DNA of 61,366 nucleotides, counting the filler. It is 8 parts of 8 records of this genome, joined end to end, with 100 filler letters (N's around TTAATTAATTAA, not from the genome) between each part and the next. Parts side by side here need not be neighbours in the genome. Positions count along the whole stretch, not along the records: positions 48,804 to 61,366 come from SRR31147125_8151; 7 more parts are not named here. One strand, given 5' to 3'. The position numbers and the translations under genes were made by a program. How positions within the stretch are numbered: position 1 is the first letter of the stretch; the number at the start of each line of letters is the position of its first letter. Shown piece by piece: positions 5,186-61,366 of this stretch. The notes beneath the pieces were generated by a model. The model saw nothing but the letters and a program-made list of their open reading frames with translations, made no database searches and was not told the DNA's origin.

Positions 5186-5253
5186 TTGTAAGTAATTGTG
5201 TATATGAATCATTGATTAGGTATATACGACTAAATAAAAGGAGGTTGTGGCAT

Positions 5254-5433
5254 ATGGGTAGAGGCTCATATAATTGTAACGATGGCAGCAGTTTGCTATT
5301 TTTCTTTTTGTTGCTTGTTGTAATATTCTGCAACTGCGATTATTTCAACGAAGACTCCGACAGCTTACTGTTCTTCTTCTTATTATTGGTTGTGCTATTT
5401 TGTGGCTACTGCAACAACGATCCTTGTTGCTGA
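5254..5433 (+). CDS. 59-aa Cys-rich small membrane protein with tandem SLLFFFLLLVV(I/L)FC repeat
   Basis: AAGGAGG RBS before ATG 5254; internal duplication with synonymous divergence; followed by a terminator. Confidence 0.75.
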   Translation: MGRGSYNCNDGSSLLFFFLLLVVIFCNCDYFNEDSDSLLFFFLLLVVLFCGYCNNDPCC

Positions 5434-25508: not shown

Positions 25509-25608
25509 NNNNNNNNNNNNNNNNNNNNNNNNNNNNNNNNNNNNNNNNNNNNTTAATTAATTAANNNNNNNNNNNNNNNNNNNNNNNNNNNNNNNNNNNN
25601 NNNNNNNN
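25509..25608. other. artificial contig linker
   Basis: N-run/TTAATTAATTAA/N-run. Confidence 0.99.
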
Positions 25609-25867
25609 CTATTCCAAAATACGAAGTATCCGACAAAAATACACATTTCGACTTAGCTTCTGGGTTATCGTATGCTTTATCACCATCAATAACCACCTCT
25701 CCTCCATCCGACTTATATACACCAGTAATAAGTCTCATAAGAGTAGACTTTCCTGCACCGTTTGATCCAACAATACCAAAAATTCCGCCTTGTTCTATAT
25801 TCATGCTAAGGTTAATAAGTGCATGAGATTTGCCGAACTTTTTGGTAACGTTACTAACTTCAATCAT
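25609..25867 (-). CDS. ABC transporter ATP-binding protein (YtrB-like), 3'-partial
   Basis: Walker A GSNGAGKST. Confidence 0.9.
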
Positions 25868-48703: not shown

Positions 48704-48803
48704 NNNNNNNNNNNNNNNNNNNNNNNNNNNNNNNNNNNNNNNNNNNNTTAATTAATTAANNNNNNNNNNNNNNNNNNNNNNNNNNNNNNNNNNNNNNNNN
48801 NNN
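48704..48803. other. artificial contig linker
   Basis: N-run/TTAATTAATTAA/N-run. Confidence 0.99.
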
Positions 48804-48805
48804 AA

Positions 48806-49084
48806 AAAATAAAATTGGTAATAATTACTGCCATTATAGTTTTGGTATCGGGTTTCTTAAACATAAATTATAGTAATGTAGGAAACGGTTATGATTCTTC
48901 TCTTAAGTTAGCAGATATAAAGGTTTTAGCCTCAGCCTTAGCTGAGGGAGGAGGATCTCAACTTTTATGTTATGATTCAATGTCATCGGATGGAACCGGT
49001 AATCTTACACATATAACTTATTGCGGTGATTGCAGTGCACATTTAGCCAGGAGTTGGCGCATAGAAAAGAAATGTAGTAAATAA
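48806..49084 (+). CDS. secreted precursor-like peptide 1 (NVEALA-like), 4-Cys core, start codon just off the contig
   Basis: KIKLVIITA... signal, pro-region LKLADIKVLASALAE, core GGGSQLLCY...CGDC...CSK. Confidence 0.75.
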   Translation, partial: KIKLVIITAIIVLVSGFLNINYSNVGNGYDSSLKLADIKVLASALAEGGGSQLLCYDSMSSDGTGNLTHITYCGDCSAHLARSWRIEKKCSK

Positions 49085-51620: not shown

Positions 51621-51857
51621 CTTGGACAAAACACAAAAGCCGAAGAATCTTATTACTATGCCTGGAACATGATTCCCAGCCGGTTTTATCCTAAATACTT
51701 AATGGTAAAATTATATGATGAAACAGGGCAACGAAAAAAAGCTCTGGAAACGGCTAATGAACTTTTAAACAAAAAGATAAAAATACAATCCACTGCGATT
51801 GAGGAAATAAAGAATGAAATGAAAACAATAATCAAAAAGCACAAAGGCAATGTTTGA
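51621..51857 (+). pseudogene. C-terminal TPR remnant of a Bacteroidota O-antigen-ligase-family protein
   Basis: LGQNTKAEESY..A..MIPSRFYPKYL..KLY...G....A...A..LL.K..K..S...EI..EM; the membrane domain is missing upstream. Confidence 0.65.
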
Positions 51858-51886
51858 ATTTATCAAACAAGTGATTAAACAAAAGG

Positions 51887-51986
51887 AAAAAGGCAGGAAT
51901 AACCTTACAACCGTTTGCTACAAAAGTAAAGGTTACCCTGCCCAGCCCCTTTTTCAATTAAGAGAGGAGGAGAGGTGACAAAGATA
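51887..51986. ncRNA. conserved two-hairpin element, copy 1 (candidate minus-strand sRNA or cis-regulator)
   Basis: GGCAGG..TAACCTT...AAGGTTA.CCTGCC, then CCCCTTTT...GAGAGGAGG, then GTGACAAAGATA; homologous to 60785-60886. Confidence 0.6.
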
Positions 51987-52061
51987 TCTAGTTTTTTTGC
52001 TAAAACTACCTTTAGTTCAGTGGTAAATAATTCTATTTATAAACATTTTAAAATTTAAATC

Positions 52062-52385
52062 ATGAAAAAGAAAAACAAAATTTTAATCGGTTCATCTTTA
52101 ATTTTAGGAATATTCATATTCAATTTATTTGCAATGAGTAGTATCGCAGATATTGAAAAAACTAATATCAGCTTAAAACAATTGGTAACTTTAAGTACTG
52201 CGGAAGCTGAAAGTGAAACTTACAATTGCACCTCTGGTGGTATAGGGTCTTCATCGTGTTCAACTAGCGCCAGCGGAGGCGGTGGAGGGATAAATGGGGG
52301 AACCTCCTGTTCGGTGACATGTATATCAGGATATTATGCTTGTTGCAATAATTATTACAACAAATGTCAATGTCGAAAAAGTTAA
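52062..52385 (+). CDS. secreted precursor-like peptide 2 (NVEALA-like), 8-Cys Gly/Ser-rich core
   Basis: Signal peptide; ISLKQLVTLSTAEAE; CTSGGIGSSSCS...CSVTC..GYYACC.....CQC. Confidence 0.85.
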   Translation: MKKKNKILIGSSLILGIFIFNLFAMSSIADIEKTNISLKQLVTLSTAEAESETYNCTSGGIGSSSCSTSASGGGGGINGGTSCSVTCISGYYACCNNYYNKCQCRKS

Positions 52386-60656: not shown

Positions 60657-60784
60657 AAACATCTAAATAAAAAATATACAATTATCCCGACACAATTAAA
60701 TAAAAAATTTATATAATTACAAATTATATATTTAGAATTTCTATGTATTATTGTTCAACAATCTTCACTACAATAAACCGAAAG

Positions 60785-60886
60785 AAAAAAGGCAGGATTA
60801 AACCTTCAACCACATTGCAAGAAAAAATGTTTAACCTGCCTGGCCTCTTTTCGCAATTTTGGAAAGGAGGTGATGTGACAAAGAAA
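60785..60886. ncRNA. conserved two-hairpin element, copy 2
   Basis: GGCAGG.TTAAAC...GTTTAACCTGCC, then CCTCTTTTC...GGAAAGGAGG, then GTGACAAAGA. Confidence 0.6.
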
Positions 60887-60978
60887 AATATTAAAAATAT
60901 ATGAATAATAATATTCTAACCCATGAAATGATATAATTGGGTATTTAAATATTTTATTAATCTTCAAACATTACCAAG

Positions 60979-61238
60979 ATGAAAAAAATAGCAATACTAA
61001 TTAGTGCCTTAACCATTGGAATTATTAGTATGGCCTTTAGTTTAAACACAAAGGAAATATTGAACGAAAGAAACACTATAAAAAATTTAGTGAAAAACTG
61101 CCAGGCAAACGCAGAATGCGAAATATCTGACTATACAGGGGATGCGAATTTAAATGCGACGACACAGAAAATGAAACCTGTACTTTCGAAGTAGGGCCTA
61201 TTAAACTTACATGCAGCGGAAAAGAAGTGGATTGCTAA
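60979..61238 (+). CDS. secreted precursor-like peptide 3, 6-Cys core revealed by correcting a G-run frameshift at 61138-61141
   Basis: MKKIAILISA... signal, TIKNLVKNCQANAE; the shifted frame reads CEFKCDDTENETCTFEVGPIKLTCSGKEVDC*. Confidence 0.7.
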
Positions 61239-61282: not shown

Positions 61283-61366
61283 ATGAAAAAAAATATTATA
61301 ATAATTGCAACAGCATTATTTACAATTATGGGAGTTGTAAACAATTTAAATATTGGCACTCTTTTT
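61283..61366 (+). CDS. probable precursor-like peptide 4, 3'-partial
   Basis: MKKNIIIIATALFTIMGVVNNLNIGTL, same signal style as the other precursors, tandem to peptide 3. Confidence 0.5.
   Translation, partial: MKKNIIIIATALFTIMGVVNNLNIGTLF

Follow-up and report, generated by a model that had tools for sequence, protein, structure and literature searches.

A candidate family of small RNA genes encoded divergently from peptide-precursor genes in Bacteroidales

Few regulatory RNAs are, to our knowledge, known in Bacteroidota. In Firmicutes, C-rich sRNAs (RsaE/RoxS and the loops of RNAIII) mask Shine-Dalgarno (SD) motifs with a pyrimidine seed that is complementary to GGAGG, and in the RNAIII/agr system the sRNA is encoded back to back with a peptide-precursor operon, a layout like the one described here. 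Most mRNAs of Bacteroidota lack an SD motif, so that the usual target class of C-rich sRNAs is largely missing in this phylum. We know of no homology between the family described below and the C-rich sRNAs of Firmicutes.

The closest layout appears to be that of the DonS-type cis-antisense sRNAs of Bacteroides PULs, which are 78-128 nt long and divergent from the susC homologues that they repress (PMC7366714). The RNAs predicted here resemble them in being paralogous short Bacteroidota RNAs of similar size that lie divergent from a cognate gene and carry their own predicted promoter and terminator. The defining neighbour differs, however, and the two are likened by layout alone: it is a peptide precursor in a RiPP- or bacteriocin-like cluster, and not susC. 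Among the neighbours of the family no susC was found; they comprised precursor ORFs and genes of the VKOR-thioredoxin, Wzy_C-TPR, LanC-like, DUF5128 and RND types. An earlier first-pass annotation of this DNA had pointed to the antisense sRNAs of Bacteroides PULs, and this comparison held for the layout, but not for the susC neighbour. GibS of Bacteroides thetaiotaomicron is encoded by one intergenic gene, its targets have been mapped, and its conserved single-stranded 5' seed pairs with mRNAs (PMC7366714). In the present family, too, conservation of the transcribed letters is highest at the 5' end, but this family is multi-copy and tied to one kind of locus.

The window, i.e. the whole stretch of DNA that was analysed (61,366 nucleotides, filler included), contains exactly two places that match the 24-nt pattern of the 5' end with at most three mismatches, compared with 0.00 expected from 100 shuffles. 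They lie at 51887-51986 and 60785-60886, exactly where the first-pass annotation had located two copies of a structured element, and the distances to the downstream ATGs, 75 and 92 nt, were also as it had given them. In a pairwise alignment of the two copies, columns 28-127 form a shared block, and the likeness ends at either edge. Both contain hairpin P1 (an A-run with GGCAGG...CCTGCC), hairpin P2 (a pyrimidine/purine stem whose last letters are AGGAGG) and GTGACAAAGA, all of which had been noticed before. The compensatory change reported for the inner part of P1 (TAACC/GGTTA versus TAAAC/GTTTA) is real in this alignment. The features of the two loci are as follows.

51974 to 51887, minus strand: copy 1, predicted sRNA of about 88 nt, from the predicted start to the end of the U5 tract (covariance model, fold)
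51979-51986, minus strand: copy 1, putative sigma-A -7 box TATCTTTG, an exact TAnnTTTG (sequence; family conservation)
51946-51969, minus strand: copy 1, hairpin P2 (fold, alignments)
51892-51942, minus strand: copy 1, P1, the long GC-clamped predicted terminator hairpin GGCAGG...CCTGCC (folds, family covariation)
51891-51887, minus strand: copy 1, U5 tract, 3' of P1 on the RNA strand (sequence)
52062-52385, plus strand: precursor 2, an ORF of 107 aa, 75 nt from copy 1 and divergent from the predicted sRNA promoter
60874 to 60785, minus strand: copy 2, predicted sRNA of about 90 nt, from the predicted start to the end of the U6 tract (covariance model, fold)
60879-60886, minus strand: copy 2, -7 box-like TTTCTTTG, with T for A at position 2 (sequence)
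60844-60870, minus strand: copy 2, hairpin P2, CCUCCUUUCC ... GAAAAGAGG (folds)
60791-60840, minus strand: copy 2, P1, predicted terminator hairpin (folds, family covariation)
60790-60785, minus strand: copy 2, U6 tract, 3' of P1 on the RNA strand (sequence)
60913-60952, listed on the plus strand: copy 2, second module (H3 and H4) in a weak version, between the predicted sRNA promoter and the precursor
60913-60926: copy 2, H3, a small hairpin within the second module
60929-60952: copy 2, H4, a hairpin with the loop TGAAATGATATAAT, within the second module
60979-61194, plus strand: precursor 3, an ORF of 71 aa, 92 nt from copy 2
from 61284, running off the window: a further small ORF, 3' of precursor 3

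Copy 1 matched the covariance model R1, the construction of which is described below, at 51883-51995 on the minus strand with 107.4 bits, and copy 2 matched it at 60782-60895, again on the minus strand, with 118.2 bits. The predicted transcript of copy 1 folded with -28.3 kcal/mol (z -3.15), a value that 0 of 200 shuffles equalled, and that of copy 2 folded with -26.9 kcal/mol (z -3.29), with one of 200 shuffles being as good. On the minus strand, copy 1 has the exact -7 box that had been claimed for it, reading TATCTTTG at 51986-51979. Copy 1 combines this perfect box with a variant 5' stretch, CUCUCCUCCUCUC, whereas copy 2 has a canonical 5' end and a box that is one base off, one of two imperfect boxes among the 53 copies analysed below. 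In P2 of copy 1, the pyrimidine 5' arm CUCCUCCUCUC, a variant of the family consensus CACCUCCUUUC, pairs with a purine 3' arm; the predicted RNA of copy 2 has the 5' end AUCACCUCCUUUCC.

The ORF of precursor 2 has a hydrophobic N-terminus and a Cys-rich C-terminus. No Pfam family matched 52062-52385, 60979-61194 or 48815-49084 at E <= 0.01, NVEALA included, and NCBIfam gave no relevant family for precursors 2 and 3 of the window, TIGR04149 also not being matched, so that the earlier description of these precursors as 'NVEALA-like' found no backing in either collection. The DNA 5' of precursor 1 (48815-49084) is masked with N's, and the count of two copies covers the unmasked DNA of the window.

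Relatives were collected with sequence patterns and with R1. A three-block pattern identified three true relatives and one chance match in 185,579 species genomes, and each of the three relatives precedes a small ORF whose start is hydrophobic and whose end is rich in Cys. The model R1 represents the minus strand and was built from five sequences, i.e. the two window copies and these three relatives. A looser pattern gave 29 loci in genomes, of which 26 were true, and 28 in metagenome contigs, of which 23 were true; in viral contigs the sole match was a chance match of 10 bits. When R1 was applied to four whole carrier genomes, 7, 1, 3 and 7 copies were found, eleven of which do not match the pattern. 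The resulting family comprises 84 distinct copies from Bacteroidales and Marinilabiliales-type genomes and metagenomes. The carrier taxa are Bacteroidales, Prolixibacteraceae, Marinilabiliaceae, Mariniphaga, Maribellus, Draconibacterium, Puteibacter, Rikenellaceae, Odoribacter and Lentimicrobiaceae. Cultured strains stand behind some of the loci, one of Puteibacter caeruleilacunae (L022, L030 and L147) and one of Draconibacterium mangrovi (L133). The pattern scans demanded TTTGTCAC..CCTCC..GGCAGG, and in half of the family, 42 of the 84 copies, the fixed state of these letters is therefore due to ascertainment. The other 42 copies fall outside the scan pattern; in these, the exact TAnnTTTG was present in 29 and the relaxed form TAnnTT[TC][GA] in 39, while ACCTCCTTTC was found in 20, CCTCC in 28, CTCC in 33 and the 11-mer in 10.

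Rfam 15 yielded 0 matches at the gathering score for the whole window. With E values of up to 10 around both copies, the matches were at chance level (CopA with 19 bits against a cut-off of 60 bits, and microRNA models), and nothing in Rfam 15 matched the element in four relatives. A description of such an RNA was also not found in the literature that was searched. Most likely, the element thus represents an RNA family without an earlier description in Rfam 15 or in that literature, in agreement with the first-pass suggestion of a new RNA.

The pairing of the predicted helices has been retained during divergence of the copies. For 53 copies, 90.2% of the cells were paired, and double-sided changes occurred in 12 of 21 pairs, compared with 4.8 +/- 1.3 in shuffled alignments, none of 500 of which reached the observed number. 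Shifting the 3' partners reduced pairing to 41-66%. In P1, 97.3% of the cells were paired and 10 of 13 pairs varied on both sides (reached by 0 of 500 shuffles), and the covariation first seen between the two window copies was accordingly present among their homologs. In P2, the pyrimidine arm is kept and the purine arm varies via changes from U-A to U-G. A set of copies that had been ascertained by protein homology gave a similar picture, with 88.7% of cells paired and 12 pairs changed on both sides; 0 of 500 shuffles reached the observed values on four measures and 6 of 500 on one.

At least five U were present within the 8 nt 3' of P1 on the RNA strand in 47 of 53 copies. Judged by its sequence, P1 together with this U tract is a predicted intrinsic terminator. 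A generic terminator scan reported 0 terminators because it was limited to loops of 3-8 nt, which excludes the longer and branched P1. The generic promoter scan used the sigma-70 consensus, which is not relevant here.

A promoter-like box lies at the other end of the element. TAnnTTTG was found at a fixed place on the RNA (minus) strand in 51 of the 53 copies, a set in half of which the scan patterns fixed TTTGTCAC, CCTCC and GGCAGG. TA and TTTG were kept and the two free positions varied, as expected for a Bacteroidota sigma-A -7 box: the spelling TATCTTTG occurred 45 times, the others being TATTTTTG, TAACTTTG, TAGCTTTG and TACCTTTG. On the plus strand, TAnnTTTG had no consistent place among the copies. 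The 7-12 nt that separate the box from the pyrimidine stretch are free to vary in their letters, which fits a transcription start at this position, and not an upstream ORF conserved on the opposite strand. A flavobacterial map of transcription start sites places the -7 box at -12 to -5 (PMC9723704). Because of this spacing, the predicted starts were set at 51974 and 60874, 5 nt past the G of the box.

The structural data point to the same strand. The plus-strand A-run 5' of P1 becomes, on the minus strand, the U tract 3' of P1. When the cells of the model alignment (53 copies) were counted, P1 contained 511 Watson-Crick, 36 G.U and 1 A.C cells, and P2 contained 246, 91 and 34, respectively; as a G.U pair on one strand is an A.C mismatch on the other, both helices are better on the minus strand, on which the model and the alignments were made, so that these counts lean that way, and the cells are not independent because the copies are related. 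Free folds, made independently of the model, gave a more stable minus strand in 36 of 43 copies, which again are related and not independent counts, with means of -29.1 versus -26.4 kcal/mol. Promoter box, U tract, wobble pairs and folding energy agree, and a functional RNA on the minus strand of the window is therefore the favoured prediction.

It is unlikely that the functional RNA is instead transcribed from the plus strand, as a structured 5' leader or an intergenic attenuator of the precursor mRNA. In such an RNA, a strong SD-like AAAGGAGGTGAT would be sequestered in P2, perhaps with a tiny upstream ORF starting from GTG or ATG, and GGAGGTGATGTGACAAAG, in which a GTG or ATG follows the SD-like run, does occur in many copies. 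The element also lies upstream of the precursor in the same orientation, and in 25 of 31 copies the sense strand gave the slightly better fold of H3/H4. An exact TAnnTTTG was present on the plus strand in only 2 of the 82 spacers between element and ATG, so that precursors generally lack a sigma-A box there and read-through from further upstream is possible. However, 36 G.U cells of P1 turn into A.C mismatches on the plus strand, versus 1 cell the other way. The best-kept letters, i.e. the A-run before P1 and the box TATCTTTG, would have no role on the plus strand, and neither hairpin is followed by a U tract there. The attenuator, which the first-pass annotation had listed as an alternative, is thus disfavoured by the strand evidence, while its other proposal, a self-contained minus-strand sRNA divergent from each precursor, gains from the -7 boxes, the U tails, the covariation of P1 and the wobble pairs. 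A sense upstream ORF was considered separately and rejected, as its start codon and frame are not kept in pattern-free copies (e.g. L072, L073, L076 and L081).

Nearly every copy is divergent from a small peptide-precursor gene, in clusters that are RiPP- or bacteriocin-like, and the precursor-like small ORFs lie 25-240 nt beyond the predicted sRNA promoter. The linkage was also quantified with an independent set of 80 loci, which were picked solely by homology to the C39-VKOR-thioredoxin protein, the gene of which precedes many copies. R1 matched in 40 of these at E <= 0.1. In 39 of the 40, the match was antisense and directly at the 3' end of the C39-VKOR-thioredoxin gene (36 of the 39 at E <= 0.01), and 31 sequences from the protein-picked loci were new. 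An ORF with a double-glycine leader follows in 36 of the 40 matched loci, e.g. the exact leader MKKLGKLSINPDKLMKNEELVNFKGG in L125, and an evident leader variant in two more. The association with precursor genes, which the first-pass annotation had seen at two loci, therefore holds in pattern-found and in protein-picked loci.

The 40 protein-picked loci without an R1 match were heterogeneous. Six had a flank of less than 100 nt, and four from Bacteroidales (L155, L160, L166 and L199) were recognised by eye as degenerate or long-insert versions. At L134 and L171 the RNA was absent. The rest were mostly from Chitinophagia, Cytophagia and Flavobacteriia, with protein identities of 25-31%. At the Chitinophagia loci, the same slot is occupied by an unrelated, covarying structured element, which borders on the upstream stop codon and whose hairpin-plus-U runs are again antisense.

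The gene upstream of the element on the precursor strand varies. It encoded a C39-VKOR-thioredoxin protein in seven cases, a Wzy_C + TPR protein, a LanC-like protein or a DUF5128 beta-propeller in two cases each, and a radical-SAM-like protein, a LytTR regulator, an HTH protein or a FecR protein in one case each. In the window, copy 1 follows the last 72 residues, all that is present, of a gene of the Wzy_C/TPR type and copy 2 an RND pump gene. This variation suggests that the RNA travels with the precursor and not with the upstream gene. Relative to the upstream stop codon, the end of the terminator ranged from -128 nt (before it) to +35 nt (after it), and P1 takes in the final codons of the gene at VKOR-thioredoxin loci.

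Two unrelated kinds of precursor accompany the family, ORFs with a double-glycine leader and ORFs with a signal-like N-terminus. TIGR04149 (GG_sam_targ_CFB, rSAM-modified RiPP precursors) matched 15 of 51 neighbouring ORFs at E <= 0.01, two of them above the cut-off of 25 bits. In whole genomes, six TIGR04149 matches were found, three of which abut an R1 match and one of which is within 3 kb of one; the other two are on contigs without an R1 match. These two, the imperfect box of copy 2 and the searches for a target described below, which yielded none, are among the points that count against the sRNA reading.

The element may also lack a dedicated RNA function altogether, P1 being the terminator of neighbouring genes, the conserved letters a DNA site (a promoter or operator in a regulatory region that the peptide cassette shares) and the short transcript a by-product; we regard this as quite unlikely. 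The most conserved parts do resemble a promoter and a terminator, the further palindromes H3 and H4 keep a constant distance to the box (in 35 of 37 cases, 20-39 nt from the edge of the R1 match), and genes for LytTR and HTH regulators adjoin some copies. However, no minus-strand gene needs the terminator, and P1 would be a poor terminator for a plus-strand gene because its U tract is on the wrong side. Furthermore, P2 and the pyrimidine stretch are inside the predicted transcript and outside the promoter, and the pairing of P2 has been kept via one-sided changes from U-A to U-G.

We consider it probable that each copy is instead a self-contained minus-strand sRNA gene, equipped with a promoter and a terminator of its own. 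The comparison of sequences established the family, its strand, the putative promoter box and terminator, the covariation and the linkage to precursors; from these we infer transcription, its start site and the function. A Bacteroidota sigma-A promoter (TAnnTTTG) would fire away from the peptide gene. The predicted transcript would have about 75-160 nt in the family (88 and 90 nt in the window) and begin with a short pyrimidine stretch of the consensus CACCUCCUUUCU, part of which would pair with a purine run of the GAAAGG type to form P2. P1, the long GC-clamped hairpin, and its U tract would end the transcript. The sRNA gene would thereby span exactly the gap between the upstream maturation or export gene and the gene for the small secreted Cys-rich peptide.

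Antisense control of the cassette appears to be the most likely mechanism, a ranking that we hold tentatively. The RNA would be fully complementary to a read-through transcript from the upstream gene into the precursor, and pairing would cut, destabilise or block this read-through, thereby separating expression of the precursor from expression of the enzymes. In this antisense pairing, the first contact would be made by the conserved 5' stretch. Such read-through is likely because the U tract of P1 is on the wrong side to stop transcription of the upstream gene. Antisense control was ranked first because the predicted RNA spans the intergenic gap with its terminator abutting or overlapping the upstream stop codon, because, outside the two spacers noted above, the precursor lacks its own sigma-A box, and because the unrelated element in the same slot of Chitinophagia also has antisense hairpin-plus-U runs. 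The conservation of the 5' stretch argues against a purely cis role and suggests a seed for pairing in trans, with paralogous cassettes or with SD-bearing mRNAs; that the stretch additionally acts in this way is possible, with considerable doubt.

If the family is real, it would be a new RNA family with clear boundaries in a poorly charted phylum, and it would add an RNA-level layer of control to RiPP- and bacteriocin-like loci. Also, an R1 match would then predict an easily missed small peptide gene about 25-240 nt away on the opposite strand.

The 5' stretch also has a likeness to 16S rRNA. Its consensus, CACCUCCUUUCU, given as (A)UCACCUCCUUUCU, is identical letter for letter to the 3' end of the 16S rRNA of relatives. 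The 16S genes of the carriers G003 and G005 end with ...GGAACACCTCCTTTCT, 12 nt of which, the anti-SD tail, coincide with the consensus of the sRNA. In contrast to the 16S tail, the stretch is located at the 5' end of the predicted RNA, and according to the fold it is in part single-stranded and in part the 5' arm of P2. The likeness is a property of the consensus and is not invariant, as among the 42 pattern-free copies CCTCC was found in 28 and the 11-mer in 10. In the genome G003, the exact complement GAAAGGAGGTG occurred at 10 sites, namely three 16S genes, three sRNA loci and four unremarkable sites, and a scan of the window for SD-like runs yielded nothing coherent.

In Bacteroidota, the anti-SD is hidden by bS21, bS18 and bS6, and the few SD-bearing mRNAs encode such ribosomal proteins (PMC7797042). 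That the consensus 5' end matches the anti-SD tail offers a concrete, testable link to the question of why Bacteroidota keep a hidden anti-SD. It is very unlikely that the RNA acts as a mimic of the 16S 3' tail that titrates SD-bearing mRNAs or tail-binding proteins. Were this true, the output of secreted Cys-rich peptides would be coupled to a change in the type of ribosome made.

Two other pairing partners of the 5' stretch were considered and rejected. One was the K-G-G codons of the leader, for which GGAGG was found in 11, GGTGG in 9 and GG(G/C)GG in 4 of 24 cases; it was rejected because complementarity is not kept, this mix being judged, by inspection and not by computation, not to exceed the ordinary interchange of glycine codons. 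The other was a kissing interaction with the loop of H4 (UCCUUUC/GAAAGGA), for which 7 bp are possible. The loop reads GAAATGA in 12 of the 33 H4 regions for which a loop was listed (of 36 distinct regions), and the RNA has no matching change, which leaves the interaction unsupported.

A mobile, MITE-like repeat or an invertible promoter in the OFF orientation is highly improbable: genomes do contain 1-7 copies, and the promoter does point away from the sole nearby gene without a promoter of its own, but the box faces P2/P1 in 84 of 84 distinct copies at a constant position relative to the precursor, where mixed orientations would be expected of an invertible promoter, and a mobile repeat is at odds with the overlap of the element with the last codons of VKOR-thioredoxin genes, with an abrupt end of the likeness and no terminal inverted repeats in the alignments, with loops that diverge greatly while pairing is kept, as in an old element under constraint, and with the lone viral-contig match being the chance match mentioned above.

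The H4 motif of the second module was also counted in whole genomes. Compared with a reversed control, it showed a modest excess (55 versus 35, 35 versus 18, 75 versus 41, and 37 versus 29 sites), and one of the eight sites that were inspected, L096, is a real cassette.

A second conserved module, composed of the two hairpins H3 and H4, was found between the promoter of the predicted minus-strand sRNA and the start codon of the peptide precursor. Its position in the window is as follows:

60913-60952: two-hairpin module (H3, then H4), flanked by the predicted promoter and the start codon of the precursor

The module is more distinct in several of the collected loci (L018, L033, L051, L060, L075, L076, and others) than in the window. 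H3 is a small hairpin of 5-6 bp and is directly followed by H4, which has a covarying stem of 5 bp (157 of 180 cells are Watson-Crick pairs) and a loop of 13 nt with the conserved sequence TGAAA(G/T)GATAnAn. A strict motif search identified the H4 module in 37 of the 84 distinct sRNA copies, and in 35 of these 37 modules the distance to the RNA was fixed. The pair counts favoured neither strand (six G.U versus five A.C cells), and the fold of the sense strand, i.e. the precursor strand, was slightly better in 25 of 31 cases. At the locus L134, H4 was retained without the sRNA.

The locus L096 (G003:C1 around 2456097), in the genome of an sRNA carrier, likewise contains a hairpin of the H4 type, next to an ORF that resembles a precursor and a divergent TACCTTTG box. 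The RNA-like sequence downstream differs from the sRNA family, and a search with R1, the covariance model of that family, gave no match there. This layout, with an RNA-like sequence undetected by R1, hints at additional, more distantly related members of the sRNA family.

Nine loci of the Chitinophagia type (L181, L182, L183, L185, L189, L192, L193, L196, and L201) contain a different structured element, which is about 120-150 nt long, GC-rich, covarying, and unrelated to the sRNA family. It had no match in Rfam. The element occupies the same slot as the sRNA, between the stop codon of the C39-VKOR-thioredoxin gene and the next small ORF, and its antisense strand bears hairpin-plus-U runs that abut the upstream stop codon. 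The precursor ORFs that follow have a different leader; the ORF of L181, for example, begins with MESKKMSLANIQGKLSRAEMKNIMAG. The element may be a functional analogue of the sRNA.

In L027 and L022, the sRNA element is preceded by a Wzy_C-TPR protein. Of this protein, no more than the C-terminal 72 residues were recognisable upstream of sRNA copy 1, at 51627-51842 in the window (tblastn, 60% identity). The gene upstream of copy 1 appears either to be reduced to a 3' remnant or to differ in its N-terminal part. Downstream of precursor 3, a further ORF was found:

61284-61366: small ORF with a hydrophobic start, beginning 90 nt past precursor 3 and running off the window

Tandem precursors behind a single RNA copy are also present in L029 and L009.

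Two further features were noted, one in the window and one in the metagenome locus L051, where group II intron domains lie near the precursor:

5237-5433: small ORF with its ATG near 5254, preceded by AAAGGAGGT 9 nt before the ATG
L051 146-436, minus strand: matches to the group II intron domain families RF02001 (134 bits) and RF01998 (52 bits)

AAAGGAGGT is a strong Shine-Dalgarno-like run, which is unusual for the phylum, and the ORF product is Cys-rich with two repeated hydrophobic segments. Immediately before precursor 1 (48815-49084), the window contains masked stretches (N) at 48704-48803, which adjoin an apparent partial tRNA gene; more X/N stretches occur near 25553-25867.
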